The position numbers were made by a program, and so were the translations under genes. Below, piece after piece: positions 1-25,642 of a stretch of DNA of 27,413 bases. The stretch is taken from the IMG/VR virus record IMGVR_UViG_2634166457_000011; one strand, 5' to 3'. The DNA comes from a virus. Its lineage: Duplodnaviria > Heunggongvirae > Uroviricota > Caudoviricetes. Numbering within the stretch: position 1 is the stretch's first letter; every line of letters starts with the position of its first letter. A model generated the notes under the pieces. The model worked only from the letters and a program-made list of their open reading frames with translations. It did not search any database and was not told the origin of the DNA.

Positions 1-155
1 TCCGGCGACATCCGGAAATACTCCTCCGGCTCACCGGAGATATTCACGCAGGGAAAATATCTTTCCCCCTCCGGTGTTCTCACCACGAAGCCGCACGACT
101 CCGCTGGCGCACATCGCCGGGCGTGCGCCAGAATCGCTGATTCTGTCTCTGTCAT
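1..155 (-). CDS. K: Tail assembly protein K, N-terminal fragment (gene runs off the window start)
   Basis: Minus-strand ATG at 155..153; translation MTETESAILAHARRCAPAESCGFVV... matches my recollection of the lambda gpK N-terminus; sits directly after the L stop as in lambda. Confidence 0.7.
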   Translation of the reverse strand, partial: MTETESAILAHARRCAPAESCGFVVRTPEGERYFPCVNISGEPEEYFRMSP

Positions 156-160
156 GGGAT

Positions 161-859
161 TCACTGCGAAAGTTTGTTAATGGAAAGGTAGCCGCCAAAG
201 TTGCCGACGTTATTGCGAAACTTACAACCACTCAGGCATTTGCTGCATTTATCCTTCGTGATATCGGACGTCGGCTGGTCATATTCATCCGCGACCGCCG
301 GACCGTGATAACCGCACTCATCACCGCGATAGGTCCAGGTGCAGGTATTAGCCAGCATGATGCGCCCCGGAAAAACAGCACCGTCCGTTTCCGTCGGCGT
401 GGACAGTACAAAAGAGGCACTGACCGCGCTCAGTTCGCTGCACTGCTCGATGCGCCAGCGGCTGACCACCTCCTGCTCTGGGTCGGCGTCACTGTTTCCG
501 TTGACGAAGTTCACCGCATCCAGAAAACGGGCGTAAACCTTACGCCTGACCACCGTTCCGCCGACCAGACTCTGCAGGTCTTCCGCCATCCCGGTGACCA
601 TTCCGTGCAGGTTAGAAACCGTCAGTGTCGGACGGGCAGCACTGCCCTTGCCGTTCAGTTCAAATCCCGTCCCCTGAATGGGCTATGCCTGATACTGCCG
701 CCCCTGCCAGGTAACCGGCTCACCTTTTTCGTTCTGCTCATTACAGAAAAAATAACGTTCACCACCGACCTCTGTCAGATCGATTTCCCAGAGCACCACC
801 TGGGCTGACTGAGTGAGGCGTGTCGTCTCATGATGTGTTTCCTGTGGAATATCCTGCAT
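161..859 (-). pseudogene. L: Minor tail protein L (gpL, Fe-S tail tip protein) interrupted by an in-frame amber codon
   Basis: ATG at 859..857; translation MQDIPQETHH...EPVTWQGRQYQA then TAG (plus 683..685 = cta), after which the same frame continues PIQGTGFELNGKG...GMVTGMAED... to the stop at 161. The track ORF 161..601 is the C-terminal 146 aa with the Cys cluster (CSKCLSGCKF). Confidence 0.7.
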
Positions 860-868
860 CAGAGCCTC

Positions 869-1198
869 CTATGCCACGACCTGTTCAAAATCTGCCGTTA
901 TGGTTACCCACAGCGCCCCCACGCTTGCCGACCATTTACGACAAACCACCCTGATCGGTTTCCAGTCATAAGGTGGCGTCCACTGAAATGCACGGACGCC
1001 ACCGTGCCGTTCCAGAAAGGCTTTTAAAGATGGGTGTTCACATTTACGAACACGTATCGTCACGCTGTAAGTCGACAACTGGTTATTCAGTCCCGCCGCA
1101 CGACGCTGTTCATAACCATCGCCCAGCTTCACTGTCACCACTTTCGGCTCTGATACCACATTCATATCCGGGCGCACTTTCCAGTGAAACGTCTCCAT
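869..1198 (-). CDS. M: Minor tail protein M (gpM)
   Basis: 109-aa ORF between H and L with gpM-like sequence (KAFLERHGGVRAFQWTPPYDW); start overlaps the H stop (TAATG). Confidence 0.85.
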   Translation of the reverse strand: METFHWKVRPDMNVVSEPKVVTVKLGDGYEQRRAAGLNNQLSTYSVTIRVRKCEHPSLKAFLERHGGVRAFQWTPPYDWKPIRVVCRKWSASVGALWVTITADFEQVVA

Positions 1199-4100
1199 TA
1201 CCGATATGCTCCACTTAACCGACCACCATCACGGGCCTGCTGTTGCATAAAGTCCGCTGCCGCTTTTTTCCCGAGGTCATAAACCGCCTTCAGGGCAGCC
1301 GGACCTATCTGCCCGTTCGAGCCATCGTTATTGATCTCGATGTTGTACTGCGGGGAAAACATCGCCATACCTGAACCCCCAATATCCGCCACAACCCCCA
1401 GCTTACCGTCAGCACCACGACGCAATGGCAGAATGGCTTCAGGTCCCGCTTCCCCCATCACACCCGCGCCTTTTGCAAAAGCAAAAAACGTCGGACGGTT
1501 AACCACCGTGCCACTGTAACGACTCAAATCAGCAGACTGATAAATCCCCCCATTGGCATTCAGGGAAAGGCTGCTGAGATCAAATCCCAGTACACTGCCA
1601 ATCCCTTTTATCGATTTCATCATGGTTGCCTGCGCCAGGATTTTCGCCATATCTGACAGCACAGAAGAGGTGAAGGATTTGAAATTGAGTTTGCCGGTAG
1701 TGACAAAAGTTGCCAGGCCATTTCCCATGTTGCTGAAGGCTGACGAGAACACCTGTTCTGCTGTTTCTGCCGTATTATCTGCATCCACGGTAAAATCCTG
1801 AAATGCACGCAGGACTCCGTTTTTCCAGTTACCCTGCACAACTTCAAGCTGTTGCCAGTAACGGCGATTCTCATTCAGTTGTCGGTTCAGGCTCTCCGTC
1901 AGCGCCTGCTCGGCCTTTCTGTAGTCATCCGTGTTATATGTCCCTTTCTGCTCACTATCCCGCCTCAACTGCTCCAGCTGTTGCTGGTATTTCTGGCGAA
2001 GACTCAGTTGTACCTGATATCGCTGTCGCTGCTGATCACCCATACCCACCGTGGCGATATCCAGGTCATGTTGCTGACGCTGAGCGCGCTCTTCTTCAGC
2101 CAGTTGACTGGTCAGCTGAATTGTTTTTTTCTTCAGCTCGTTGAGTGCCGTCTGTTTCTGAAGCTCCTGCTGTTTTACATCCAGCAGCGTCAGTGCCTGA
2201 ATCAGTTCATCTTTACGGGCCAGCACACTCTTTTCATCTGCCGTCAGTTTTTTCCCGTCCAGGTCGCTGATGCGCTGCTGCAGAGCCAGAAGCTGTTTAT
2301 GCGCTTCTGTCATCCTTTCCGTGGCAATGCCTGCTGACTGTCTGGCAGCAGCAATCTGTCCTTCCACCTGTGCCTGTTGCTGACTGTACTGCAGCAATAA
2401 CCGGGTGGCCTCATCATTACGGGTTTCGCGTGTTTTTTTCTTACCGGATGCCAGGGCTTTCTCGTAACGTTCATTTTCACGTTGTATCGCCGCATCCCTG
2501 ACAGCCTGATCGGCGTACTGCATGGCATTAATACGCGCAATTTCACGCTGATGTCGTGCAGCTTCCGTTTCATTCATCCGGTTCAGTGCAGCATTTTCAG
2601 CATTACGGCGTTTCTGTTGCTCCTGATAATTCCGCTCTGCCTGCTCTTTTGCATCCTGCAAATCCTTCTGGCGTTTTTTCTCCTGAAGATCGTTAAGACG
2701 CTGCTGATCGTATTCAACCTGAGAAGATGACGCCGTCCAGGGGAGTCTTTTCGCCCGCGACACTTTCTCCTGCAAAGTGGCAATCTGCGCATCCAGCGAA
2801 TCTTCACGACCAATATTCATGGCCGCATCCCAGAACTGCTTCCACCAGTCAGACAAAGTTTGCAGCGTACTGCCCAGCGCATTGAGGTTATTATCAATAT
2901 CCGCAGTACGCCGACCGGTTTCCTCTGCCAGTGCAGACATGGCTATCCGTGCCGCATCACTGGACCGCCCCTGCTCTCCAAGGACGCGTATCTGCTCAAG
3001 CTGAGTGGCAGTAAGAAAATGCAGCTCATTGTCCAGAGACTTCGCGGCATTTACAGGATCATCCTTCAGCCGCTTAAACTGATTTATGGTATCGCTGACC
3101 GACTGGCCAACCGATCGCTCCATCTGTGCGGCAGCTCTCGCCACCATACCGATATCGTTTCCACGAAATGCACCACTCCCCACCACCTGAGCTAGCGCAC
3201 CGGCTGCAGCATGTTGCGTGATACCATTCCCGGAAATAGCACGACTGAGCGTCCACAGCTGCCCGGCAGTGACTCCGGCATAATGCCCCGTCAGCGACAG
3301 CTGGCGGTTAAATTCTTCCCCCTCCTTCTGACCGTCATACCAGGCTTTACCCAGACCATAGACGGCCGCGGTAATACCGCCAATAACCGCTCCTGGCATC
3401 ATGCCTTTCGGTGACATCAGTGTGTCTATCCATCCGGCACGGTTAGCCAGCGTTATCCCGGATCCCCTCAGCGCCCCTAAATTGCCGCGGGCCAGTTCAC
3501 CTATCAGAACGCCTATCTCCTGGCGGGCCGCTGCACTTTTCAGACCCAGCGAATGCGTGGCTTTTCCTGCCCGCTCCATTTTGCGGATATACACTTCTGC
3601 AGCACTGCTTACCCCCAGCTGGGCAGCCCTGGCACGAAGCAACTCAGAAGAAGAAAGATTCTGGCGGGTTGCCTGCTCTTTAAGCTGACGGATAAACGCC
3701 ACTTTCTGTCGGGTAGCCTCTGCCTCAGCCTGCGTAAGAACACGGGTTTTCGCCGTAACCTCAGAAATCAGCGCCAGATAATCCTGCTGACCAATCCCGC
3801 CACTGTTTCTGGCCTGTCGGATCTGCTGCTGAATACGCTGTAATTCCTGCAGCCCCGCACTGGCCTGTTTCACACTGTCAATCTGACGATAAAACGCAGC
3901 AGCCGCTTTATCCTGAGCCTCCGCCAGAGCCATGGCCTGCGCCTGTTCCTCGCGCATTTTCTGGCTCAGTGCCTCCATGCGCTGGCGGGTTTTCTCCACC
4001 TCGCGGGCCATGCGTTCATGAGCCTGTGCGTTCTTCTCCACCGTCTGCGCATGGACGGATGCGGCTGTTGCAGCCGAAGAAGCTGCCTGCGTTGTCTGCC

Positions 4101-4263
4101 GGGCGGCCTGAGTCTGACGCTCCATAAAACGCTGCATACGGGCAGAAGACCGTTCTGCATCGCTGGCTGCACCATTCAGAAGGTTTTTGATACGGGGAAT
4201 TTCATTTTTAAACTCTGCCGCATCAATCCCCAAATCAATGACCAGGTTGGCTATCTGGTCCAT
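1198..4263 (-). CDS. H: Tail tape measure protein (gpH-like)
   Basis: About 1020 aa, coiled-coil-rich; N-terminus MDQIANLVIDLGIDAAEF and C-terminus NNDGSNGQIGPAALKAVYD...RDGG resemble lambda gpH. The track ORF starts at TTG 4293; the ATG at 4263 has a GGAGG Shine-Dalgarno 6 nt upstream. Confidence 0.9.
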   Translation of the reverse strand: MDQIANLVIDLGIDAAEFKNEIPRIKNLLNGAASDAERSSARMQRFMERQTQAARQTTQAASSAATAASVHAQTVEKNAQAHERMAREVEKTRQRMEALSQKMREEQAQAMALAEAQDKAAAAFYRQIDSVKQASAGLQELQRIQQQIRQARNSGGIGQQDYLALISEVTAKTRVLTQAEAEATRQKVAFIRQLKEQATRQNLSSSELLRARAAQLGVSSAAEVYIRKMERAGKATHSLGLKSAAARQEIGVLIGELARGNLGALRGSGITLANRAGWIDTLMSPKGMMPGAVIGGITAAVYGLGKAWYDGQKEGEEFNRQLSLTGHYAGVTAGQLWTLSRAISGNGITQHAAAGALAQVVGSGAFRGNDIGMVARAAAQMERSVGQSVSDTINQFKRLKDDPVNAAKSLDNELHFLTATQLEQIRVLGEQGRSSDAARIAMSALAEETGRRTADIDNNLNALGSTLQTLSDWWKQFWDAAMNIGREDSLDAQIATLQEKVSRAKRLPWTASSSQVEYDQQRLNDLQEKKRQKDLQDAKEQAERNYQEQQKRRNAENAALNRMNETEAARHQREIARINAMQYADQAVRDAAIQRENERYEKALASGKKKTRETRNDEATRLLLQYSQQQAQVEGQIAAARQSAGIATERMTEAHKQLLALQQRISDLDGKKLTADEKSVLARKDELIQALTLLDVKQQELQKQTALNELKKKTIQLTSQLAEEERAQRQQHDLDIATVGMGDQQRQRYQVQLSLRQKYQQQLEQLRRDSEQKGTYNTDDYRKAEQALTESLNRQLNENRRYWQQLEVVQGNWKNGVLRAFQDFTVDADNTAETAEQVFSSAFSNMGNGLATFVTTGKLNFKSFTSSVLSDMAKILAQATMMKSIKGIGSVLGFDLSSLSLNANGGIYQSADLSRYSGTVVNRPTFFAFAKGAGVMGEAGPEAILPLRRGADGKLGVVADIGGSGMAMFSPQYNIEINNDGSNGQIGPAALKAVYDLGKKAAADFMQQQARDGGRLSGAYR

Positions 4264-4597
4264 AACGCACACCTCCGGAAATACCTTCCCCAAGATGCAT
4301 CAGTTCTTCGTCCGTTCGCTCCGGTATCCCGTTCTCTTCCGGTAAAAGGCTGAAATCAGCCACCGCAGCATCACTGCTGCCGGACACCATTCTCACGATC
4401 AATGCCTTCAGCGAGGCAAACTGCGCATCCATCCACACATCACTGAAGCTCTGCATCCGGAAATAATCGCCCCACTCACCAAGCTCAGTGGCCGACATTT
4501 CCGACAGCATCCGCCGCCAGTCTGCCCGCCGGAACTCCCGGGCAAGCCGCATGACAAACTGCATTTCCCGCGTCAGGACTTTTCCGGCGTCAGCGCC
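4235..4597 (-). CDS. T: T-frame segment of the G-T tail assembly chaperone (reached by -1 frameshift from G)
   Basis: The -1 frame relative to G is open from 4597 down to the stop at 4235 and overlaps the last codons of G; the position mirrors lambda G/GT. Confidence 0.6.
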   Translation of the reverse strand, partial: GADAGKVLTREMQFVMRLAREFRRADWRRMLSEMSATELGEWGDYFRMQSFSDVWMDAQFASLKALIVRMVSGSSDAAVADFSLLPEENGIPERTDEELMHLGEGISGGVRYGPDSQPGH

Positions 4598-4959
4598 TCA
4601 TGCTCATCATCCACGGCATTATCAATGGCCCCCATACCGCTCAGCGACAGAACCATCTCCGCCCCCGCACCCAGGGCATCATACGACCATGTTGTAATAA
4701 CGGATGCGCAAAGCGTCTCTACATCCTTAGACTGATCCGCATTCCACAGTGAGCGGGAAACCAGCCAGGCATTGATATCCATCCCCATCCGCAGAAAAGC
4801 AATCTGTCGTTCAGCCTCCGGCAGTTCTCCCTCCACGGCATCAAACTTTGCCGTTCGCTGCTGAACAAACGTCAGATATTCAATTCTCTGCAGCCCGGAC
4901 AGCTCACTGAGCACCACGGACTGTTTTTCATAATTAAACGTGTCCTGTTTCAGAAACAT
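4573..4959 (-). CDS. G: Tail assembly chaperone G
   Basis: Translation MFLKQDTFNYEKQSVVLSELSGLQRIEYL... resembles lambda gpG; GGAG 6 nt upstream of the ATG at 4959. Confidence 0.8.
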   Translation of the reverse strand: MFLKQDTFNYEKQSVVLSELSGLQRIEYLTFVQQRTAKFDAVEGELPEAERQIAFLRMGMDINAWLVSRSLWNADQSKDVETLCASVITTWSYDALGAGAEMVLSLSGMGAIDNAVDDEHEALTPEKS

Positions 4960-4975
4960 CATGTTCTCCACCTGC

Positions 4976-4999
4976 AAAAAAGCCCCGCATAACCGGGGC
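4976..4999 (-). terminator. Stem-loop plus T-tract between major tail gene V and chaperone gene G (attenuator-like)
   Basis: Minus strand reads GCCCCGGTTATGCGGGGC followed by TTTTTT; 6-bp GC stem at 4982..4987 / 4994..4999. Confidence 0.45.
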
Positions 5000-5019
5000 A
5001 AATGATGAGTATCGTCCTG

Positions 5020-5763
5020 TTAACCTGCTGCGCTGACAGTCACCGCAGTCACAGCCACAAAATTCCCGTCAGCGGTCATGCCCACAATGCTGACACTGCC
5101 CTGCTTCACGCCTTTTACCGTGGCCACAAGTCCGTTCAGGGTAACCGTGGCAGTCTGTGGATCTGACGAATGCACACTGATCGCTTTGTCACTGGCTCCG
5201 TCAGGTTTTACTGTAAAGGTCAGCGTGGTGGTTGCTCCCACTTTTACACTGGCAGACGCCGGTGATACTGTCAGCCCGGTAACGCTCACGGTTTCAGTGC
5301 CTTCCTCTGCCAGATACGGACGCCCCACACCGCTGATTTTCACAGTGCGGGTCATCACGTCTTTTGAGGCAATGGTTTTACCCAGTGAGCTCAGCCAGCC
5401 ACGGAAAACATCAACAGTGCCGTTGGGATATTTGATACGAAACGCGCAGACTTCACCGGAGTCGAACAACTGAACCAGTTTTTTCTGCCCGCTGTCACCC
5501 GGACGCCAGGCCAGCGTCGCCGAAGTATCACCAACGGATTTCTGCCCCTGGGTTGTCGTTTTCCAGTCTGCATCTTCATCATCGAGATAAGTGTCATCTT
5601 CTGCATCAGCGGTCATTTCGCCAGGTTGCAGATCCTTCACCATCGCAAGACGCAGCCAGTCAGTGTCCGACAAAGGGTTCGCAAACGCATCGCCGTTGCC
5701 GGTATACATCCAGAACGTCGTCCCCGCACCTTTCGTCTTTGCCAGTGGATTTGGTGTGGTCAT
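5020..5763 (-). CDS. V: Major tail protein V with C-terminal Ig-like domain
   Basis: MTTPNPLAKTKGAGTT...YLDDEDADW...PNGTVDVFRGW...VGRP resembles lambda gpV; C-terminal T/S/V-rich beta segment. The ATG at 5763 is chosen over the upstream track start. Confidence 0.85.
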   Translation of the reverse strand: MTTPNPLAKTKGAGTTFWMYTGNGDAFANPLSDTDWLRLAMVKDLQPGEMTADAEDDTYLDDEDADWKTTTQGQKSVGDTSATLAWRPGDSGQKKLVQLFDSGEVCAFRIKYPNGTVDVFRGWLSSLGKTIASKDVMTRTVKISGVGRPYLAEEGTETVSVTGLTVSPASASVKVGATTTLTFTVKPDGASDKAISVHSSDPQTATVTLNGLVATVKGVKQGSVSIVGMTADGNFVAVTAVTVSAAG

Positions 5764-5773
5764 TACCACCTCC

Positions 5774-6187
5774 TTAATTCGTGTACGTGATCTGGTACGT
5801 GATTTCCGCCATCGCCCAGGTGGCCATCTCATTATCACGTTGATAGTTAAAACCGAGTGGGTTCAGGGTGTCGATGAGTCCGGAAAGTGCCGGTACATCA
5901 TTCAGGGCCGGGAAAATGGTGCTCTCCATCCACATATCCAGCTCTGAATCCGGTGCCTGTGCCCGGATGAAGACGGCAATATGCAGAACAGCCTGCCAGT
6001 CATCTTCATCCGTCATTTTTCCGGTGTACTGAGCATCACTCAGCCACACCGCCACGGCAGGCAGTTCCTGCGCATCAATAAATGCCGGAAGCCCGTCAAA
6101 AAACGTGGCGCTGTCTCCACACTGTTCCCGAAGGCGTGCCAGTACGACCTGGCGGATTTGTGTATGTCGGTTCATCGGGTCAGCCAT
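5774..6187 (-). CDS. U: Tail terminator protein U
   Basis: Motifs ATFFDG, PAVAVWL..YTG, LHIAVF, PDSELDMWMES, ITYQITY match lambda gpU as I recall it. Confidence 0.8.
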   Translation of the reverse strand: MADPMNRHTQIRQVVLARLREQCGDSATFFDGLPAFIDAQELPAVAVWLSDAQYTGKMTDEDDWQAVLHIAVFIRAQAPDSELDMWMESTIFPALNDVPALSGLIDTLNPLGFNYQRDNEMATWAMAEITYQITYTN

Positions 6188-6762
6188 AACCTCAGTTGTT
6201 GTTTCAGTGCATACCCCAGCTGTTTCGGCATTTCCGCAGCAATGATGTGGTCGCGGGCATCTTCAAATGCCTGTGTCAGCGGTCCGGACAGCGGGATTTT
6301 CACTACCTCCACAGGAAGACGATTTTTTCTTGGCCTGCCCTGATGGTCATGCCCTGTTGCAAAACGCGCTTCAGGAAGACGCCTCAGAACATGCCAGCGG
6401 CCATTCGCCAGTTGCTGAACAAATGCCCCCCGGAAAAAGTATTTTCCCACTCTCAGTCCTTCACCAGCACGCCGCCGTGTTGTGTTCAGTTTGATGGCGG
6501 GCAGATTGCCCCGGTTAACGCGGATCCTGGCCGTCATTTTTCCTGACGGACTGGCTTTAAACACCCGGACACGCTGACGTACCAGTTTCAGGGGGATCCC
6601 TTTCACCTGGTTATCTCCCGCAACGGTATTCCCGGCAACCTGCCGGGTGGCAACCGAGACCGCTTTCTGTGCCACACGGTTTATCGCCCATGCGCTGGCC
6701 TGTGGCACCATACGGGTATCAAGGCTGTTCAGATTGCGGATGGCATTCTCAAGCCCCTTCAT
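6172..6762 (-). CDS. Z: Tail completion protein Z
   Basis: Motifs RIRVNRGNLP, GAFVQQLANGRWHV, VVKIPL, QLGYALKQQLR match lambda gpZ as I recall it. Confidence 0.8.
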   Translation of the reverse strand: MKGLENAIRNLNSLDTRMVPQASAWAINRVAQKAVSVATRQVAGNTVAGDNQVKGIPLKLVRQRVRVFKASPSGKMTARIRVNRGNLPAIKLNTTRRRAGEGLRVGKYFFRGAFVQQLANGRWHVLRRLPEARFATGHDHQGRPRKNRLPVEVVKIPLSGPLTQAFEDARDHIIAAEMPKQLGYALKQQLRLWLTR

Positions 6763-6773
6763 CCCACACCTCT

Positions 6774-7049
6774 TTACTCAATAAAGATCATTGGCTTACC
6801 GTTAAAGCGTTCATGCCGTGTGACCGTCCATTGTTGTCCGTCATAAACAACGCGATCCCCGCGCCGTGGGCGGTATCCCGAAGAAAACACCACCAGAGAG
6901 ACCGCAGGTCCGGACAGAGCATTCAGCTCTGCCAGTGTTTCTCCCGGGATCACAGTCATATCGACATCATTAATCGAGGCTGTCTTTCCCATCTTTCTGA
7001 CCGTGATCGCATCCATACGCGCTGCCAGCCGGGAAAAGGGATCAGACAT
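6774..7049 (-). CDS. Head-tail joining protein (FII-like, small beta protein)
   Basis: 91-aa ORF between the head-decoration-like gene and Z, at the lambda FII position; weak recalled similarity. Confidence 0.5.
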   Translation of the reverse strand: MSDPFSRLAARMDAITVRKMGKTASINDVDMTVIPGETLAELNALSGPAVSLVVFSSGYRPRRGDRVVYDGQQWTVTRHERFNGKPMIFIE

Positions 7050-7365
7050 TGAGTTTTACCGGCACTTCTTCTGCACTGGTTCCGGCATCTGCCCAGACAA
7101 CCCCGACCAGCGGATCAGAGCCGCTGTTAGTCAGCTGAACTTTTCCGGACTTCAGATAAACCTTCTTACCCGTTTTCATGTCATCCGTTTTCAGCTTAGG
7201 CAGCATAAACACACCTTCGGTCATGCCGTCGCCTGTTTCACCCTGTGGAATATCGGTCAGCGCCACCGCAAAAACATCACCCACCTGCACCAGCTCTCCG
7301 CTGCTGATGGCTGCACTGGCAACAATCGCCACCGTTTTTCCTTCTTCTACAAAATTCTTTGCCAT
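7042..7365 (-). CDS. DUF2190-like small head protein (decoration or head-closure candidate)
   Basis: ORF downstream of the capsid gene; start ATG at 7365 with GGAG 7 nt upstream; Gly/Val-rich beta-type sequence. Confidence 0.5.
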   Translation of the reverse strand: MAKNFVEEGKTVAIVASAAISSGELVQVGDVFAVALTDIPQGETGDGMTEGVFMLPKLKTDDMKTGKKVYLKSGKVQLTNSGSDPLVGVVWADAGTSAEEVPVKLNV

Positions 7366-7378
7366 AACTGTCTCCGCA

Positions 7379-7428
7379 CAGCCCCGTTCAGGGGCTGATT
7401 TCAGGTACAAAAAAAGCCCTTACGGGCC
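7379..7428 (-). terminator. Two stem-loops immediately after the protease-capsid gene, the first followed by a T7 tract
   Basis: Minus strand reads GGCCCGTAAGGGC then TTTTTTT (plus 7407..7428), followed by a 7-bp stem CAGCCCC-TGAAC-GGGGCTG (plus 7379..7397). Confidence 0.45.
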
Positions 7429-7451
7429 ATCAGAGTTGTTGTCTGCGACGT

Positions 7452-9410
7452 TTACGCCGTACATTTCACCAGACCGCGGTGATCAACTGGCGCGACACCG
7501 GCGTCAATACGCACTTTCGTTGTCACGCCATCCACACTGAAGCCCTCCATCTGATCAATATATGGCGTATCCACACCGTTGAGATAAGCCACTTCAATCG
7601 TATCGGAGCCTTTTGACGCAGCCAGGTAGAAGGTGGTCTGGCTGTTATCATCAAGACGAGGCTCTGCAATAACGGTCGCAAAATCTTTCACCGGGTTAAT
7701 AATACCGGCGTTAATGTCAGCCCCCTTGACACTTGAGGAGCGAATGACCTGGTTAGCAACAGACTCCATCGCCGTCGGTACCAGTACGAACGCAGGACGA
7801 ATATTCAGATGACGCTCCCCCTCTTTCTGAACGCGCATCAACTGGCGGGCTTTATCCAGCGATGCCACGTCCATTGCAGCGCTCTCCAGTACGTTTGCAT
7901 GTTTCGCTTTATCGAACAGACTTACATTATCTGTGGAGATTTTCGGGTTAGACGTCAGAATGGCATAAACCAGATCGGCAATAGTGGATTTCGCCGCACG
8001 GCCCAGTTTCATCGGGACATCGGTCAGCATATTCAGATCATCATTGATAATGGCCTGACGGGTGATACTGAACAGCTCGCCATAGGTCGCCAGTGCAATA
8101 GTGGCCTGTTTATCTCCGGTGGTGACGTATTTATATTCCGCCCCTTCACGCACCTGACGCAGAGCACTGAAGCCCCCCATACCCACACGATGGGCAATTT
8201 TAAAATCAGACAACTGACCTTTCCGCGTCCATTGTTCATAGGTTTCAGGAGCATCTTCCCAGCCCTGCAGAATGGCTTTGTTCGCAACATCCAGCAGAAT
8301 ATTACCGAAGTCAGACGTACTGTGGGTGAACGCCGCACCGACCATCTGCATCGGGTTATAACCGGAAACCCCAATACCCCGTTCAGTCAGTGACATACGG
8401 GCATATTCACGCAGGGTCATCCCGTTGTAGACATTATCACGTTCGGTTTTTTCAAATCCGGCACGCGCCATCAGCGCCTGGCGGATCCCGTCCCCCACAA
8501 AATTACCGTTACCAGCATAAATATGAGCCGGTGTATTTTTATTGGATGGCGTGGACTCGCGCCCCATCTCGTTCAACAGCTTTTCGCGGGCCTGCTCCAG
8601 CGAACACTCAGGATCGGCAAGACACTGAGCCTGCAGCGTCTGATAACGCCCGCCAAACATGGCAAACAGATCATTAATACCGTTTACACGCGCTTTTTGC
8701 TCTGCCAGTACCTGCGCACGGATACTGTTTTCATCCACCACGGGTGCTGCTGCCTGCACTGGCGTCCGGGAGGCTGCAGGTTCATCATCCTGTACGCGTG
8801 GAGCACTGTTGCGTGGCGGAGTAATCATGTTTCGAATGGATTCCGGCATCTTTTTAAATTCCTCTGTACGTTTTGACTGAATACATGCCATTGCCTTAAC
8901 GGCTGGCGTCACCTGATCAGCAAATCCATGTGCCAGACATTCGGCACCGGACATCCAGGTCTCATCCGCCAGCATGGCAGCAATTTCATCGGTGGTTTTC
9001 CCGGTTTTCTGTGCATAAGCGGGTAACAGAACCGCCTCAACCTTATCGAGCAGGTCGGCATAGGTGCGCATGTCCTCCGCATCACCGCCCGTAAAGCCAA
9101 ATGGTTTATGAATCATCATGAAGGTGTTTTCCGGCATAATGACCGGGTTTCCCACCATCGCAATGACCGACGCCATTGACGCCGCCACACCGTCGACATA
9201 AACGGTAATGGACGCACCATGTGTTTTCAGCGCATTAAAAATGGCGATGCCTTCAAAGACATCGCCACCCGGTGAATTGATATGGAGATTAATGTGGGTG
9301 ATATCGCCCAGTGCATTCAGATCACTGATAAACTGCTTCGCTGTAACACCCCAGAAACCAATCTCGTCATAAATATAAATATCCGCGTCACTCTGGTGAC
9401 CAGCCTGCAT
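7452..9410 (-). CDS. Prohead protease (ClpP/S14-like) fused in-frame to the major capsid protein
   Basis: N-terminal region IYIYDEIGFWGVT...HINSPGGDVFEGIAIFNAL...VDGVAASMASVIAMVG is ClpP-like; about 430 C-terminal residues are capsid-like; one uninterrupted ORF. Start taken at ATG 9410, just after the portal stop; the track ORF extends to 9671 and overlaps portal. Confidence 0.8.
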   Translation of the reverse strand: MQAGHQSDADIYIYDEIGFWGVTAKQFISDLNALGDITHINLHINSPGGDVFEGIAIFNALKTHGASITVYVDGVAASMASVIAMVGNPVIMPENTFMMIHKPFGFTGGDAEDMRTYADLLDKVEAVLLPAYAQKTGKTTDEIAAMLADETWMSGAECLAHGFADQVTPAVKAMACIQSKRTEEFKKMPESIRNMITPPRNSAPRVQDDEPAASRTPVQAAAPVVDENSIRAQVLAEQKARVNGINDLFAMFGGRYQTLQAQCLADPECSLEQAREKLLNEMGRESTPSNKNTPAHIYAGNGNFVGDGIRQALMARAGFEKTERDNVYNGMTLREYARMSLTERGIGVSGYNPMQMVGAAFTHSTSDFGNILLDVANKAILQGWEDAPETYEQWTRKGQLSDFKIAHRVGMGGFSALRQVREGAEYKYVTTGDKQATIALATYGELFSITRQAIINDDLNMLTDVPMKLGRAAKSTIADLVYAILTSNPKISTDNVSLFDKAKHANVLESAAMDVASLDKARQLMRVQKEGERHLNIRPAFVLVPTAMESVANQVIRSSSVKGADINAGIINPVKDFATVIAEPRLDDNSQTTFYLAASKGSDTIEVAYLNGVDTPYIDQMEGFSVDGVTTKVRIDAGVAPVDHRGLVKCTA

Positions 9411-9423
9411 CCTGAACCAGGAA

Positions 9424-10932
9424 TTATTCTTCGGACTGGTCGTCGGTGTGCTGCGGCTCCTGTCGTTTCGTTGCGGCACTGCTGCCTCCTTTATCACTGG
9501 CCGGATCGGTATCAAATACCAGATCCAGCTTGCGGTTTTCATCAATTTCTGCCTTGCGCCGACATTTGACATCATCCGGATTACGACCACCTGCACGTAC
9601 CCAGTCTGATTCTGTCGCCGCTCCACCACGAATCTGAATTTTCCAGGCCTCAGCCTCCTTAACAGGGTCAATCCACGGCATCACCGGTCCGGAATACACC
9701 GCGGTATACAGTGAAGAACGGTCAAGATCGCGGGGTAGCCTGATAACACCGGATGCCACAGCCTGTTTCAGCCAGGCACGATACATCGGGCGGGTGACGG
9801 CACCAATAAACCAGTCCTGCAGGATCAGGTAGCCATCAGTGGATTCAACCAGCTCCTGACGCTGGGCGCTGTAAGTGCCGTTATAGTTGCGCGCTGTACT
9901 GGAAAAACTCAGACGACTGCCCGCCGCCACGGCACGCAACTGACCATTACGAAAAGTTTCAAGGTTAGGATTGGGGCGATCCGACTTCACCATTCCGATT
10001 TCTTCGCCGGGTTTCAGATCGTCGTAAATAATGCCTGGCTGAATGGTAAGCTCGCGTTCATTCTCCTTGCTGTCATTACCATCCGTTTCATAGCTCTGTC
10101 CGTCGCCTTTGCGGATGTACATCCCCAGAGCAGCAGCGATCCTTGCTGCAGTCAGCTCAGAATCTTCATATTCTTTCAGGGCACTGAGGCGGATCAGCAC
10201 ACCGGACAATAAAGACGTCCCGCGCATCTGGTGCAGACGGCGAACAAATTTAAGATGCAGCATTCGCTCTGCATCCACTTCTTTGGTTTCCATCTGCCGT
10301 CCGGATACAGGACGACTTTTATACACCAGATATTTTTCGGGACGCCCCCAGTCATCAACAAACACGCCCTGATTCAGCCTGTTGCTCTCATCACTGGTCA
10401 TGGGAATAAAGTCTGGCTCGAGTGCCTCCAGCCAGAAATGAACACCGGCAGAAGGCGTCAGGCTGTTTATGCGCCCGGAAACCATCTGGGCAAACACCTC
10501 ACCATCGCGCAGCCAGGTACGCAGCATCAGACGTTCCAGCATCGGACGGGTAAACTGCCCGGTAACTTCCGGACTGACAGACCATTCACTCCATCGGGTG
10601 CGTATCTCCGCTGCCAGATCACGGGCAATGGCCCCATTGCGTAATACCGGATGTGGCTCGACAATAATCCCGTTTTTCCCCACCACCCGTTCTTCCAGCT
10701 TGTCAAATACACCAATGACCAGATCGTGGTTGTTATCAAGGTAACGGGCCTGCTCACGTAACGACACGGCCCCGTAGAGGCTTAACTGGTCGGCAGTTCG
10801 GTTTTCCCGCCGGGCTTTGTGTGTCCGCGTCGTTTTTACGGCCTCATAAGCCTGGATCACCGCCCGGGAACGCAGCCTTGCCGCTTTCCATCCTGGTGAA
10901 AAAACGCCAATCACATCATCAAGAATTGCCAT
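9424..10932 (-). CDS. Portal protein (lambda gpB family)
   Basis: About 500 aa between gpW and the protease/capsid gene; start ATG 10932 overlaps the W stop (TGATG). Confidence 0.85.
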   Translation of the reverse strand: MAILDDVIGVFSPGWKAARLRSRAVIQAYEAVKTTRTHKARRENRTADQLSLYGAVSLREQARYLDNNHDLVIGVFDKLEERVVGKNGIIVEPHPVLRNGAIARDLAAEIRTRWSEWSVSPEVTGQFTRPMLERLMLRTWLRDGEVFAQMVSGRINSLTPSAGVHFWLEALEPDFIPMTSDESNRLNQGVFVDDWGRPEKYLVYKSRPVSGRQMETKEVDAERMLHLKFVRRLHQMRGTSLLSGVLIRLSALKEYEDSELTAARIAAALGMYIRKGDGQSYETDGNDSKENERELTIQPGIIYDDLKPGEEIGMVKSDRPNPNLETFRNGQLRAVAAGSRLSFSSTARNYNGTYSAQRQELVESTDGYLILQDWFIGAVTRPMYRAWLKQAVASGVIRLPRDLDRSSLYTAVYSGPVMPWIDPVKEAEAWKIQIRGGAATESDWVRAGGRNPDDVKCRRKAEIDENRKLDLVFDTDPASDKGGSSAATKRQEPQHTDDQSEE

Positions 10933-11144
10933 CAGAACCTCGCCAGCCGGTACCCGGGATGCCCCCGTCGTCGTGTAATCAGAGCCGCAAGGCGGCGCTC
11001 CCACTCCTGCCGTCCCTGCCGGATCTCAGATAAGTTTTCCATGGTCATCTGCTGACCATTAAAGGTGACGGATTTTCCGTCCAGCACCGCCATTTCAGCT
11101 TCCGTATAACGCTGAATCATGGCTTCGATATCATTCTGGTTCAT
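10932..11144 (-). CDS. Head-tail joining protein gpW-like
   Basis: 70-aa ORF between terminase large subunit and portal, C-terminus RRRGHPGYRLARF resembling gpW; start overlaps the terminase stop. Confidence 0.6.
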   Translation of the reverse strand: MNQNDIEAMIQRYTEAEMAVLDGKSVTFNGQQMTMENLSEIRQGRQEWERRLAALITRRRGHPGYRLARF

Positions 11145-13240
11145 AACCATCCTCCGGAAGTCAGCCAGGGGTTAACATCGTCAGTTACTGTTTTCTTCCG
11201 TTTTTGTTTTTTAACAGGCGTGGATACCGGTTCCGGTGAGGGTGACGGTTCGGTACTGTCCGGGACACACTCCAACCAGGTTTCCCGGCTCGCCCACTCC
11301 GGTGCATCCGGCCAGCGGATCTTTTCGTATCCATGCAGAATGACCAGAGCCTCGGCATACACCATCAGGTCAAAAGCTTCGTTGGCACCGCGACCCGGCT
11401 TACTCCATTTCCCGTCACTGCTCCGCTCTTCATACGTCAGTTCGTCGTAAAACCAGCTCCCCAGCCAGTCAGGGAAATGCACATAGCCGGGACCTGGCGA
11501 GTCACGCCATAACGCGTTATTCACCCGGTCTTTCAGTGCATCCGTCTGAAGAAGCCAGAGCGGCACATCACCTGCGGCCTGCGCCCGTCGGCCCGTTCGT
11601 CCGGTGTTATCAGGGAATGTACGGGTGATCAGTTTTGCGCGCCGGATGCTGTCGCCCTTAAACAGGTAAATACGTTTACCAAGGCCATCACGACGGCAAC
11701 GACGCCAGAATTTATAGGCATTATCAGTGACCCCGTCTTCACCGCCGGAGTCCAGCGCCATTGCCATCAGTCGCATTTGTTGAGAAGGATCGGAGGCCAG
11801 CGGCCAGCTTTTATGAAAAACATCCGTCAGCAGGACATCCCAGTCTTCCGGATAGCTGGCCGGATCAATTCGCTGGCTCTCCCCGTCGCAGTCACTGCGC
11901 AATGACTGCGTGATATTGTAACGATCAATAATCCAGCGTTCGCCACGACTGCCATAGCCCGTTACCTGAACCACAAAACGGCGATGACGTCCCGCCTGCA
12001 CATCCACTGTCGCCACAAGGAAATTAACGCCATCCGGCACACTGCAGGAAGGAACTGGCTCTGCCCGCTGCTCAAGCAGTTCACTTTTTCGTTGCTCCAT
12101 GCTGGCACGAGGAAGATAAGGCAATCCCCAGTCGGTGTTGATAACCGCCCTGAGTGTTTCTTCGCTTCCTGTCGCTTCATACTCCTGTTCTGCAGTCAGT
12201 AATTTGTAAACCAGTTGCGCCCAGGTCTGATACGCAGCAGCTGGCCCTTCCATCCAGAAACTGGCGATACGGGAGCGGCGCGGTTCACCGGAAACGTTGC
12301 CGTTACGATCAATGACCTGACCTTCACGCAACCAGACTCCTGCACTATTGAGCTCACGCTTTTTCTCCGCAGTGATAATGCCGCTGCAGTGCGGGCAAAG
12401 TAGATACGCCGCCTCACTGGCTTTAAAGGGATCCGGTTCATTACGGTAGCCGGTCATGGCATCCATAGCTGGCTGAAAATATTCACCGCAGTGCGGACAT
12501 GGCCAGTACCAGCGGCGGCGGTCACCACGATTGTAAAGGGAAAGAATACCAGTCGTCGGTGGCGCTTCATGAGGCGACTTACGTCGCCATTTACTGTCGC
12601 AGATGTCACGTCCCGGCGAGCTCTCCACCAGAGTCATCCCGGCGGACATAAATGTGGTGGTACGTTTTGAGGCCAGGGAGAAACCATCACCCTCGCTGTC
12701 GATATTCTCCGGAAAACGGTCGTAATCGGTTAAGGCGACAAACCGGTAATCCGACGACGACATAATGTTGACCGAGGGCCAACCAATTTTAAGGAACGAG
12801 CCATCCCTGAACGTCTTATCATGGACATTATTGTCGTTACGACGTGGACTCATTCTTTTCTTTACCGCCGCACTGCTTCTGAACGTTCTGTCGAGGCGCT
12901 TTTTAGAATGCTCGCGGGCCTTATCTTCGGTCATCTGCACAACGAGCATGTCCGAAGGATCGCAAACGATGGTATAGACAATCCATCCATCGATCAGACC
13001 AATGGTCTTCCCTGTTCGCGCAGGACCAACAAAAATCACCGCATCGTATTCACGCGATGCCAGGCAGTTCATGGGCTCAATGATGTAGGGTGTCAGTTCA
13101 GGATCCCATGGCACCGAGTTACCAGCCCCCTTGGGAACACGCATGAATTTTTTAACAGCCTCCGAAATCGGCATGCGACGTGGTGGGGAAAATCCTGCCG
13201 ATATGTCCCTTCCCAAATTTCGGGCTGATGAAAAACCCAT
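11141..13240 (-). CDS. Terminase large subunit (GpA family)
   Basis: 699 aa, Walker A-like FVGPARTGKT, Cys motifs CPHCGEYF and CPHCSG, strong SD AGGAGG before the ATG at 13240. Confidence 0.9.
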   Translation of the reverse strand: MGFSSARNLGRDISAGFSPPRRMPISEAVKKFMRVPKGAGNSVPWDPELTPYIIEPMNCLASREYDAVIFVGPARTGKTIGLIDGWIVYTIVCDPSDMLVVQMTEDKAREHSKKRLDRTFRSSAAVKKRMSPRRNDNNVHDKTFRDGSFLKIGWPSVNIMSSSDYRFVALTDYDRFPENIDSEGDGFSLASKRTTTFMSAGMTLVESSPGRDICDSKWRRKSPHEAPPTTGILSLYNRGDRRRWYWPCPHCGEYFQPAMDAMTGYRNEPDPFKASEAAYLLCPHCSGIITAEKKRELNSAGVWLREGQVIDRNGNVSGEPRRSRIASFWMEGPAAAYQTWAQLVYKLLTAEQEYEATGSEETLRAVINTDWGLPYLPRASMEQRKSELLEQRAEPVPSCSVPDGVNFLVATVDVQAGRHRRFVVQVTGYGSRGERWIIDRYNITQSLRSDCDGESQRIDPASYPEDWDVLLTDVFHKSWPLASDPSQQMRLMAMALDSGGEDGVTDNAYKFWRRCRRDGLGKRIYLFKGDSIRRAKLITRTFPDNTGRTGRRAQAAGDVPLWLLQTDALKDRVNNALWRDSPGPGYVHFPDWLGSWFYDELTYEERSSDGKWSKPGRGANEAFDLMVYAEALVILHGYEKIRWPDAPEWASRETWLECVPDSTEPSPSPEPVSTPVKKQKRKKTVTDDVNPWLTSGGWL

Positions 13241-13248
13241 TATTCCTC

Positions 13249-13776
13249 CTAGAGACTCTCTCCTTCCTCATCAGGAATTAATTCAGCAGCACAAGCCTCG
13301 TAGGATTTTTCCTGAAGAGTGTATCGCAGGTCATCAATGGCCTGCTGTACAACGCCGACGGCCTGAGGAGTCAGAGCGCAATCGCGTTCAAGAACATCCG
13401 GAATTGTCTCCAGAACCTGGACGACAGCCTTTCTCATGGACGAATAGACGATGACTACTTCATCAACTGGGATGAGTTTTCGCTGCTCCTTTTCCAGCTT
13501 GATCCTTTCATTTTCAGACTGGTACCAGTCCTTTCTCTCTTTCGGCTCCATACGGGATGGATCATGAACAGAGTCTGCTGCCTCATGCTTCACACTAAAC
13601 AGGGCGGGCCCGACATGCTGCAGGGCGTAAACGGGGTTCCCCCTGACAGTCGCAGCCACAGGAGTGTTGGCCGCGAGGAGCCGTTTTTTTACTGTGTCCC
13701 GGTGAAGCCCAAAGGCCTCGGCGATTTTAAAAACACTCCAGTAATAAGCATCACCGATCCCGCTCACATTTGACAT
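13249..13776 (-). CDS. Terminase small subunit (Nu1-like, N-terminal HTH)
   Basis: Translation MSNVSGIGDAYYWSVFKIAEAFGLHRDTVKK...; GGAG 6 nt upstream of the ATG at 13776 (the track ORF starts 4 codons earlier). Confidence 0.8.
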   Translation of the reverse strand: MSNVSGIGDAYYWSVFKIAEAFGLHRDTVKKRLLAANTPVAATVRGNPVYALQHVGPALFSVKHEAADSVHDPSRMEPKERKDWYQSENERIKLEKEQRKLIPVDEVVIVYSSMRKAVVQVLETIPDVLERDCALTPQAVGVVQQAIDDLRYTLQEKSYEACAAELIPDEEGESL

Positions 13777-15409: not shown

Positions 15410-15583
15410 TCAGATTAAATTAATCTTGACATCATAGCTTTCAAGACCCGTCATTTTTTCCCGTGCGGTAAACTGAATACTGGTAACTTCTTTCCCGGTT
15501 TTTTTCTTAAGTTCAATAATTTTTTTTGTTATATATTCAGAAATATCTGCTTCTGCTTTTGTTTTTAAGTCTTCAATATTCAT
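15410..15583 (-). CDS. gnsB: GnsA/GnsB family protein (57 aa)
   Basis: Hand-translated: MNIEDLKTKAEADISEYITKKIIELKKKTGKEVTSIQFTAREKMTGLESYDVKINLI; AAGAGGAA SD; absent from the track (under 60 aa). Confidence 0.65.
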   Translation of the reverse strand: MNIEDLKTKAEADISEYITKKIIELKKKTGKEVTSIQFTAREKMTGLESYDVKINLI

Positions 15584-19354: not shown

Positions 19355-19894
19355 TCTACATTCCTTAACTTGAGCCTTTCGGCATAAATGGTTTGCATAA
19401 CAGAAACGACTTCGTACTTAATTGGAGAGACTCAAAGAAGGAATAAGTGAATAACACCTGAAATGAGAACTGCTTTAGTAAACTACTTCGTATATCGTCT
19501 GTTCTTCAAACCGACGCAGTCATTAACTCATAGTTGAACATATGAAGCAATGTTTATTTTAGACATCCAGCCACCTTCTACCCTATCAAAAAAGTAGTTT
19601 TCTCCAGGAACGTGTGTATGGTGCACCAGGTTATCAGTATTAAGGAGTTTTTCTGTCCCCTAAAATGACAGGAATTGTCAAAAACTTTGACTGCAAAAGC
19701 AGCAAAGGTCTTATATTCCCATCCGATGGCGTATCGATGCCCAGCTTCACGTTTCAGCTCTCAATCTTCGAGATGCAGAAGAAATTACCACAGGATTACG
19801 CGTGGAATTTTGCCGGATAAATGGTTCGCGTGGACCTTCAACTGCCAATGTTTATCCCGGGATGAGATTCAATATCTCTATTGCCCCATTTAAA

Positions 19895-23117: not shown

Positions 23118-23448
23118 GATAACCTCATGTATTGGACGTACACCACTCCTGATAAATATGAGGTTGTCTCGTCAGTGATTCAAGACAACTATTGGATATA
23201 GTTTCTCTGATTTTTTCTGGGGAAATGGGACTCAAGAACCAGTCACCACCAGCACTTCTTTTAATACGCAAAGTCCGACTCAAGCTAACCTTCCAGTCCG
23301 CTTTGTGCGAAGAACGGACTTATCTGTACAAGGGAACTATCCAGCAATGGAGATCACCCAAAAGAAAAAACTCCTGGCTCCCCTCGACAACCTTCATCGG
23401 GGCAATTAGCCTCAATCAACATTTTTATATCTGTCAGGTGACTTCATT

Positions 23449-24357
23449 ATGAAAAATGATATCAAAACCCTCGACCTTAACTTACTTAAGACCTTTGATG
23501 CGTTAATGGATGAGGGAAGCGTGACTCGAGCTGCGCAGCGACTCTCCCTGACGCAGCCCGCTGTCAGTGGCATGCTTATTCGATTACGTGATTATTTTTG
23601 CGATCCTCTCTTTGTTCGCACCAGTCACGGTATGGTTCCCACACTACGTGCCAAAGAACTTGCTATGCCGGTAAAACAAATTCTCACCGATATAGCTATT
23701 CTGCTGAAACCAAGTAAATTTGAACCCATGACGGCAGAACTAACTTATACCATTGTCGCAACGGACTATGCAGTTAAGGCTGTTGTTGTCCCATTGATGG
23801 CTGCGCTGAAACATCGAGCACCGAATATTAAAATCTCTGTGCGGGCTGTAGACAATAAACGAATGTATCAGCAGTTATCTCAGGGAGAAGTGGATCTGGC
23901 TTTGGTAACACCACAAACTACTCCCGGAGAGCTGCACGGCAGAGCACTTTATGAAGAAGATTATGTTTGCATAGCACGACGGAATCATCCGTTGTCAGCG
24001 AATTCAGAAATGACACTCGAACAATTTTGCAAACAGGAACATATTCTGGTGTCTTCAGAAGGTAGCTTCTCCGGTGTTACAGATGAAGCACTGGCTAAAC
24101 TCAGTCTGACACGACGAGTAGGCATGTCAGTTAATAGTTTTCAAGTAGTTCCTGATATATTGCAAGTGACTGATATGATCGCTGTTGTCCCCCGCCGCAT
24201 GGTCTTGACTAACAACGATCTGATCATACTCCCTTTGCCCCTTAAAGTTCCGGGCTTTACCAAGAGTATGGCCTGGCATGAACGAACTCATCGTGACCCT
24301 AGCCATCAGTGGATTCGGGCTTTATGCGTAGAAGTTAGCCAACATACTGGCTCCTGA
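23449..24357 (+). CDS. LysR-family transcriptional regulator
   Basis: 302 aa; N-terminal HTH LLKTFDALMDEGSVTRAAQRLSLTQPAVSGMLIRLRD; LysR substrate-binding-type C-terminal region. Confidence 0.9.
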   Translation: MKNDIKTLDLNLLKTFDALMDEGSVTRAAQRLSLTQPAVSGMLIRLRDYFCDPLFVRTSHGMVPTLRAKELAMPVKQILTDIAILLKPSKFEPMTAELTYTIVATDYAVKAVVVPLMAALKHRAPNIKISVRAVDNKRMYQQLSQGEVDLALVTPQTTPGELHGRALYEEDYVCIARRNHPLSANSEMTLEQFCKQEHILVSSEGSFSGVTDEALAKLSLTRRVGMSVNSFQVVPDILQVTDMIAVVPRRMVLTNNDLIILPLPLKVPGFTKSMAWHERTHRDPSHQWIRALCVEVSQHTGS

Positions 24358-24377
24358 TATAATTTATCTTATTAAGA

Positions 24378-24405
24378 TTATAAGTAATCACAATTCGTCT
24401 TATAA
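24378..24405 (+). promoter_or_regulatory. Inverted repeat TTATAAG-N14-CTTATAA upstream of the SRPBCC gene (candidate LysR-type binding site)
   Basis: Perfect 7-bp arms at 24378..24384 and 24399..24405; candidate -10 TACAAT at 24463..24468. Confidence 0.4.
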
Positions 24406-24492
24406 CTTCATTGCGCTAATAATCACTGCCATCGTGTTGCGGCCGTAACGCAGCAAACCCAGTACAATTAACTACCGCAATTGGAGACATTT

Positions 24493-24999
24493 ATGAACGC
24501 TATTCACTGGCCAGAAGGCTTTGTTCCGGGATTTACTGATAACTTTGTTTCTAATGAAATGATCATATCCGGCCTGAACGTCAATGATGTTTGGCCACTC
24601 CTTAGTCAGCCATTGCTATGGCCGGAATACTATAAAAATTCAGCAGATGTGCGCTTTTATAACAATAAAGGTCCGGATCTGGAAAATGGAGTGCGCTTTT
24701 ACTTCAGCACATTTGGATTTCCGGTTGAAGCTCAGGTCGTGGAATTTATTCCACCTGTTGAAGGTAAACCTGCTCGTTTGGCATGGCACGGATGGTCAGG
24801 TGAAAAAGATACTGTTCAACGCCTCGATGTTCATCATGCGTGGCTACTGGAGGAACTCTCGGGTAACAGACTCCGTATCCTGACGCAGGAAACGCAGAAC
24901 GGAGTTCCGGCAAAAAAACTGGCAAATACTCGTCCGAACCCAATGCTCAATGGTCACCAGGAGTGGCTTGACGGCCTGATTCTGGCTGCAAAGAAATAA
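24493..24999 (+). CDS. SRPBCC-superfamily (polyketide cyclase/START-like) protein
   Basis: 168 aa from the ATG at 24493 (GGAG SD); sequence resembles small ligand-binding SRPBCC proteins; recalled, not searched. Confidence 0.6.
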   Translation: MNAIHWPEGFVPGFTDNFVSNEMIISGLNVNDVWPLLSQPLLWPEYYKNSADVRFYNNKGPDLENGVRFYFSTFGFPVEAQVVEFIPPVEGKPARLAWHGWSGEKDTVQRLDVHHAWLLEELSGNRLRILTQETQNGVPAKKLANTRPNPMLNGHQEWLDGLILAAKK

Positions 25000-25228
25000 T
25001 TACTACTTTTGCAGAAAAGTATCACTGCGGTTACATTTTCCCCAACATCCTCATAATATTTTCATCTTTACTATTGAACTTGAGCACAGGTAAATCCTGT
25101 GCTCCTCTCTAAGTGACAGCGCATGGCCATATTTGCAAATGCCGTTTCTGGCACAAAGCAAACTACCACGCTAGCTCTACCCTGCACCATGAAAATGTCA
25201 ATTCGCATCTGAACTAATACTCTTTAAT

Positions 25229-25642
25229 CTAGTAAATAACATTTCCCTGATAAAATGCCAGGATGCGCTGCATAACTTCGCTCTTCCGGCACTCGCGACA
25301 GATTATGTTTAGACGACTGTCGTAGCGACGTATTTCTCCGTCAGGTAATAACCAGATAAGGTCCGGATCAACCACAGCAGGTTTCTTCACCTTTGCCCTC
25401 GAGAGTTTTTTGCGGGCGTTTTGCCAGTCCTTACGCGCCTGTTCAGAGGGGAATAACCCGTAGCCGGAGTTGTATACATCGCCACTAGCAACCAGCTCTC
25501 TGGCAAGAACGCTCATCAGATATCTTGTCGCACCTGTTTTAGCTTCCAGTTGCCGTAACGTCTCTCGACCGCTCTGGCGCACGAGTTCCACCACCTGCCC
25601 TTTAATTTTTTCCCGCTCTTCTTGTGTAAAAACTTTTGCCAC
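25229..25642 (-). CDS. Hypothetical protein (137 aa) downstream of the replication initiator; possible winged-helix plus C-terminal CxxC
   Basis: GTG start with AAGGGGGA SD; sits where a helicase loader would be expected but is far too small for one. Confidence 0.45.
   Translation of the reverse strand: MAKVFTQEEREKIKGQVVELVRQSGRETLRQLEAKTGATRYLMSVLARELVASGDVYNSGYGLFPSEQARKDWQNARKKLSRAKVKKPAVVDPDLIWLLPDGEIRRYDSRLNIICRECRKSEVMQRILAFYQGNVIY

Follow-up and report, generated by a model that had tools for sequence, protein, structure and literature searches.

A probable recent amber mutation in the tail-tip gene L of an otherwise intact Qin-site lambdoid prophage of Escherichia coli M114

The window analysed here is the whole of scaffold KQ241490.1 (27,413 bp, no N) from assembly GCA_001186315.2 of Escherichia coli M114. 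Its early and lysis genes are dicC, ydaT, hokD, rem, ydfU, ydfT (Q-like), cspB/F, essD, rrrQ, rzpQ and cspI, with a complete head and tail module after them. On this gene content the window is identified as a lambdoid prophage of the Qin-site kind, as a first-pass annotation of the same DNA had proposed. The assignment is borne out by the intact Qin-site prophages of strains SCU-152, 2A, NRG 857C and ATCC 25922, which have the same gene order from dicC to K and are 98.5–99.3% identical to the window at the DNA level over about 23 kb. The structural module is similar to those of phages Tritos, cdtI and mEp460; its head part is of the ClpP-capsid-fusion type found in these phages, unlike that of lambda. 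The features of the morphogenesis region are the following, in window coordinates.

1..155, minus strand: gene K (C40/JAB peptidase), first 51 codons; the scaffold ends inside K (gene comparison)
161..859, minus strand: gene L, lambda gpL-type tail-tip hub protein, 232 codons, broken by an amber codon (translation, PF05100, alignment to 8iyk_L)
161..601, minus strand: possible 146-aa C-terminal restart fragment of L from Met87 (ORF list)
683..685, minus strand: amber codon TAG of L (codon 59; Tyr, TAC or TAT, in relatives); on the plus strand the altered base is the C at 683
686..859, minus strand: coding part of the 58-aa N-terminal product, the sole product expected of normal initiation (ORF list; deposited gene call)
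869..1198, minus strand: gene M, distal tail protein, intact (109/109 aa identical to SCU-152; Pfam Phage_min_tail, E=1e-39)
1198..4263, minus strand: tape measure gene H, 1021 aa, intact; its rare allele is a marker of the lineage (full-length 99.5% match to SCU-152)
4238..13776, minus strand: rest of the morphogenesis module, intact: T, G, V, U, Z, FII-like, DUF2190, ClpP-capsid fusion, portal, W-like, large and small terminase (99.6–100% protein identity to SCU-152)

Read on the minus strand, positions 859..161 form a single 232-codon lambda-type L frame with one internal stop, a TAG at codon 59 (685..683). The translation is MQDI...WQGRQYQA*PIQGTGFEL...INKLSQ*. An amber stop inside an otherwise continuous lambda-like L was the central claim of the first-pass annotation, and it is confirmed, as are the fragment sizes given there: the ORF list of the window has the L frame in two pieces, 683..859 (58 aa) and 161..601 (146 aa, ATG at 601). 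With the stop read as Tyr, the frame matches Phage_tail_L (PF05100) at E=8.7e-99 over profile positions 1–206 of 206, and aligns without gaps to the lambda tail tip protein L (8iyk_L; other gpL structures are 8iyl, 8k35, 8xcg and 9e7m) over 232/232 residues at E=1e-147. All four cysteines that bind the [4Fe-4S] cluster (lambda Cys173, 182, 205 and 212) are at the same positions; they lie downstream of the stop and outside the 58-aa product. The gene order H, M, L, K is the same in the window and in annotated relatives, and lambda likewise has M, L and K downstream of the tape measure gene. The window differs from lambda in that its frame is broken at codon 59, and in having Ala58 in place of the lambda Pro58; the 8iyk_L alignment has Pro58-Tyr59, the dipeptide that the first-pass annotation gave for lambda at this position.

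The L frame is under purifying selection in relatives and is not a chance open frame, since among 65 distinct L alleles the third codon position holds 82 of the 133 polymorphic sites. Antisense to L, in the same codon register, lies a 244-aa ORF (74..808, plus strand) that is also open in relatives. We rejected it as a gene, because over the same 65 alleles about twice as many of its amino-acid columns are variable as in L (99/232 versus 45/232); it is a by-product of L codon usage. By profile, synteny and cysteine pattern, the window L belongs to the PF05100 / gpL family. The frame expected of a member is interrupted here by the TAG at codon 59, so the window L is best filed as a pseudogene of the family and not as a functional member.

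Every window gene was compared with the annotated intact Qin-site prophage of SCU-152. From the small terminase to M, all genes are full length, without stops or gaps, and their products are 99.5–100% identical to those of SCU-152, in agreement with the earlier statement that no head or tail gene of the window other than L is damaged. The remainder of the tail module (the end of K, I, J and the fibre genes) falls outside the window. No secondary damage was found in the window structural genes, whether as more stops, frameshifts, deletions or IS elements. K, which starts 5 nt beyond the L stop, is intact (247 aa) on a contig of identical haplotype (L015), where full-length I and the start of J are also called.

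The stop requires a single transversion, C>G on the coding strand, that changes TAC to TAG. At 2 of 699 bases the window L differs from the L genes of strains 2A and SCU-152, which are annotated and intact. One is L base 177, G in the window and C in 2A and SCU-152 (TAG versus TAC); the other is base 381, where the window has a synonymous A in place of G. There is no further non-synonymous change in the window L relative to these two strains. Two substitutions had been assumed at the site, an error that came from comparison with lambda instead of the nearest relatives: 2A and SCU-152 already read GCA TAC (Ala58-Tyr59), so Ala58 is native to the lineage and a single substitution is sufficient.

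Of 79 close IMG/VR relatives, 56 have TAC at codon 59, 23 have TAT and none has a stop there; no internal stop occurs anywhere in L in these 79 sequences. Base 177 is thus polymorphic (C/T) among relatives, and base 99 is polymorphic too. Tyr59 is also present in more distant homologues, and the YPIQ motif that contains it is preserved even in a 55%-identical one. An 81-mer centred on the TAG was searched in 5,426 complete E. coli genomes; it was matched at 2,236 places, spread over 1,929 of them, and none of these places is an exact (100%) match; a TAG-containing 42-mer has no match in GTDB species representatives, IMG/VR or JGI metagenome contigs. For the M-L-K region, the best match in the complete-genome collection, which does not include M114, is 99.8%. 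Judging from these comparisons, L orthologues are not naturally split at codon 59, which had been named as a result that would overturn the first reading, nor does the stop appear to be a conserved recoding site.

Heavily decayed copies of L do occur elsewhere. Read in the aligned frame, there is 1 stop in E. coli ECMA0423, 2 in Shigella flexneri SFBU1023 and 8 in S. flexneri SFBU0723, and these copies represent later decay stages of the same gene. A separate set of 92%-identical L genes with the lambda-type motif QPYPIQGS is found on short or low-coverage contigs of non-enteric GTDB representatives, in genera that include Neobacillus, Oceanobacillus, Shewanella, Bradyrhizobium, Kitasatospora and Chromatium. 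These genes look like lambda DNA contaminating the assemblies.

Evidence on whether the G at base 177 is real comes from other assemblies. The deposited annotation of GCA_001186315.2 calls two L products, one of 58 aa (Phage_tail_L) and one of 142 aa that starts at Met91 (589) and is deposited as 'phage minor tail protein L [Escherichia coli M114]' (KNA38939.1). The 142-aa product is called only when the upstream L frame is broken, and an exact product look-up places it on only three contigs, namely the window itself and two sister contigs, one in GCA_902842135.1 and one in GCA_051592065.1. Both of these sister contigs contain GCATAGCCC, with the same TAG. They are identical to the window over 781/781 and 738/738 positions and to each other over 910 bp, and they share with it the A at L base 381, which is rare (1/79 relatives). 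The exact window tape-measure protein is likewise on only three contigs in the whole assembly collection; a Logan contig that encodes it is identical to the window at 7494/7494 positions and ends at L base 90. The same TAG thus occurs with rare linked markers in separate submissions with differing contig ends, which makes a random sequencing error unlikely, and TAG is probably the true base. Its presence on one rare haplotype is what would be expected if the TAG was inherited within a clone, or if one strain was sequenced more than once. The three TAG assemblies might indeed be one strain or clone sequenced again, in which case they are replicates of the base call and not independent evolutionary events.

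The 58-aa product gives a different picture. Its exact look-up returned 66 blocks, and the nine other places listed are all contigs that end at L base 176. These nine contigs (positions 10001–10176 of each locus, corresponding to window 859..684) come from unrelated assemblies with two different head modules, and they end one base before the amber site. We rejected the idea that the 58-aa product in many assemblies signals a widespread stop, as the listed places are truncations at contig ends. A hypervariable or error-prone base 177 was also considered and rejected. An exact 58-aa look-up favours contigs that end at L bases 174–176, base 177 carries an ordinary C/T polymorphism, and the polymorphic base 99 lies 77 bases upstream, a common assembler k. 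The shared end at base 176 is therefore probably a selection effect of the look-up combined with forks at base 177, or with k=77 forks after base 99. The L region around base 176 is a recurrent breakpoint of draft assemblies, as expected of DNA common to co-resident lambdoid prophages.

We consider the best explanation to be a genuine and recent nonsense mutation, Tyr59 TAC>TAG, in gene L of the M114 Qin-site lambdoid prophage, confined to one rare lineage, and we put its probability at roughly 0.8. Of the three readings offered by the first-pass annotation (recent inactivating mutation, suppressor-dependent allele, sequencing error), the inactivating mutation is thus the best supported. The absence of secondary damage in L and in the visible module argues that the event is recent. 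Judged as a decaying prophage, the element has an inactivating mutation relative to intact orthologues and lacks accumulated secondary damage, and the stop would be the first visible step of prophage decay.

Gene L is essential in lambda genetics, and on this basis we infer that the M114 prophage should be tail-less on its own. Translation from the L start would stop after 58 residues, and the product would lack about two thirds of the HDI hub domain and the whole C-terminal [4Fe-4S] domain, so that the prophage is predicted to be unable to make a tail tip of its own. If translation restarted at Met87 or Met91, residues 1–86 of the same single domain would be missing. On induction in a cell without a suppressor, the prophage would then yield DNA-filled heads and no functional tails. 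With late transcription antiterminated by Q, polarity on K, I and J should be limited; because K starts so close to the L stop, lost ribosome traffic could lower its translation. In lambda, the HDI domain is an N-terminal beta-sandwich hub domain of residues 1–166, the C-terminal domain (154–232) binds [4Fe-4S] through the four cysteines listed above, and the last tail ring consists of gpL and gpJ trimers (PMC10721106).

A sequencing or assembly artefact, in which the true base is C (TAC) and the G results from error or from collapsed reads of two co-resident prophages, seems very unlikely. The draft scaffold ends inside K, 160 bp past L, and hence abuts repeated prophage DNA; the polymorphism at base 177 and the recurrent assembly-graph fork suggested by the nine contigs ending at base 176 point in the same direction, as does the absence of the TAG from all complete finished E. 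coli genomes searched, and a systematic base-calling error is formally possible. However, collapse of C and T copies gives C or T and never G, and the shared end of the nine contigs largely reflects selection by the look-up. The same G on an identical haplotype in two other submissions with differing contig boundaries, tied to the rare synonymous marker and the rare tape-measure allele, fits descent and not recurrent error, and the C-terminal fragment call is confined to three contigs while the same protein allele is intact in other strains. Programmed recoding or a naturally split L, with regulated read-through or two functional polypeptides, is extremely improbable. In-frame ATGs at codons 87 and 91 could give 146- or 142-aa fragments that retain the Fe–S cysteines, but the comparative data contradict this reading, as a stop or split occurs in no relative. 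Moreover, residues 59–86 would be absent from both pieces, although they lie inside the single HDI beta-sandwich domain, and no good Shine-Dalgarno match at normal spacing was found upstream of either ATG, so that neither has a convincing ribosome-binding site.

The mutation could instead be real and the prophage still productive, through an amber-suppressor tRNA of the host, low-level read-through of UAG, or the intact L of a co-resident prophage; we regard this as unlikely. Amber suppressors are uncommon in natural isolates. ARAGORN found no tRNA gene, and hence none of CUA anticodon, in the 27.4-kb window, the Q-to-lysis interval where lambdoid phages carry tRNAs included. As in a sus-type allele, the UAG lies in a gene that is essential by lambda genetics. 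The stop is conserved in no relative, and hence is not a maintained feature, and only a very rare lineage has the allele. In favour of a productive prophage, three gpL copies per virion suffice, and the module has not decayed further. Contig ends point to a possible source of gpL: the scaffold ends inside K, and each sister contig runs from a point within L (base 79 or 122) to one in J or K, so these genomes must hold at least one further lambda-like tail module with common DNA. The M-L-K region is present in two to three copies in close relatives, and the start of the 910-bp contig lies 55 bases short of base 177, as might result from a k=55 fork between G and non-G copies. A second, compatible L in M114 is nevertheless hypothetical. 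Rescue in trans would alter the phenotype and not the nature of the lesion. It seems quite unlikely that the amber allele is tolerated or kept because the prophage depends on the gpL of a co-resident prophage in trans, or on rare read-through that would suffice for three gpL per virion; if so, the prophage would be a tail-defective, head-competent element still spreading at low frequency, and would provide a natural example of one prophage complementing the tail-tip gene of another. There is precedent for such behaviour in defective prophages of O157 Sakai, which are still released and transferred through inter-prophage interactions (PMC2669165).

The closest known counterparts of the M114 allele are the laboratory tail amber (sus) mutants of lambda and the point-mutated O157 Sakai prophages (PMC2669165). 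Like these, the window combines a single nonsense codon in an essential morphogenesis gene with an otherwise complete lambdoid genome, and it should be open to rescue by a suppressor or by a co-resident prophage. Unlike them, it carries a natural allele of a wild isolate, with no suppressor found in the window. It is well known that one nonsense mutation in a morphogenesis gene can render an otherwise complete prophage defective, and no new mechanism is indicated. As a genuine recent mutation, the M114 allele offers a clean case of prophage inactivation at its very first step, with one base changed and no secondary decay, and a possible natural test case of complementation between co-resident lambdoid prophages. 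The correct annotation is one L pseudogene with an internal stop, not two 'minor tail protein L' genes; prophage-completeness tools would probably rate the element intact, although it is probably unable to build its own tails. Beyond annotation, the importance of the finding is small.

The M114 and SCU-152 prophages also differ in accessory genes. Their L genes are identical except for the stop and the one synonymous site, while the cargo between hokD and the DUF977 gene (window 23192..24999, plus strand) is different. In the window it includes the following genes.

23449..24357, plus strand: LysR-family regulator (best NCBIfam matches BsrA and LeuO, both under the curated cut-offs)
24481..24999, plus strand: 172-aa ORF that adjoins the regulator, with no Pfam or NCBIfam match

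The SCU-152 prophage carries an FRG-domain gene in place of this cargo, and because the two prophages are otherwise near-identical, the hokD–DUF977 interval is a hot spot of cargo exchange. Further accessory differences from SCU-152 lie at window 15413..15583, 19718..19855 and 25223..25642. The gnsB-like region has a gap and only 74% identity, and even the SCU-152 gnsB carries a frameshift according to its annotation; cspF aligns only from residue 23, at 87%; and the DUF977 protein ends 3 residues early relative to SCU-152.
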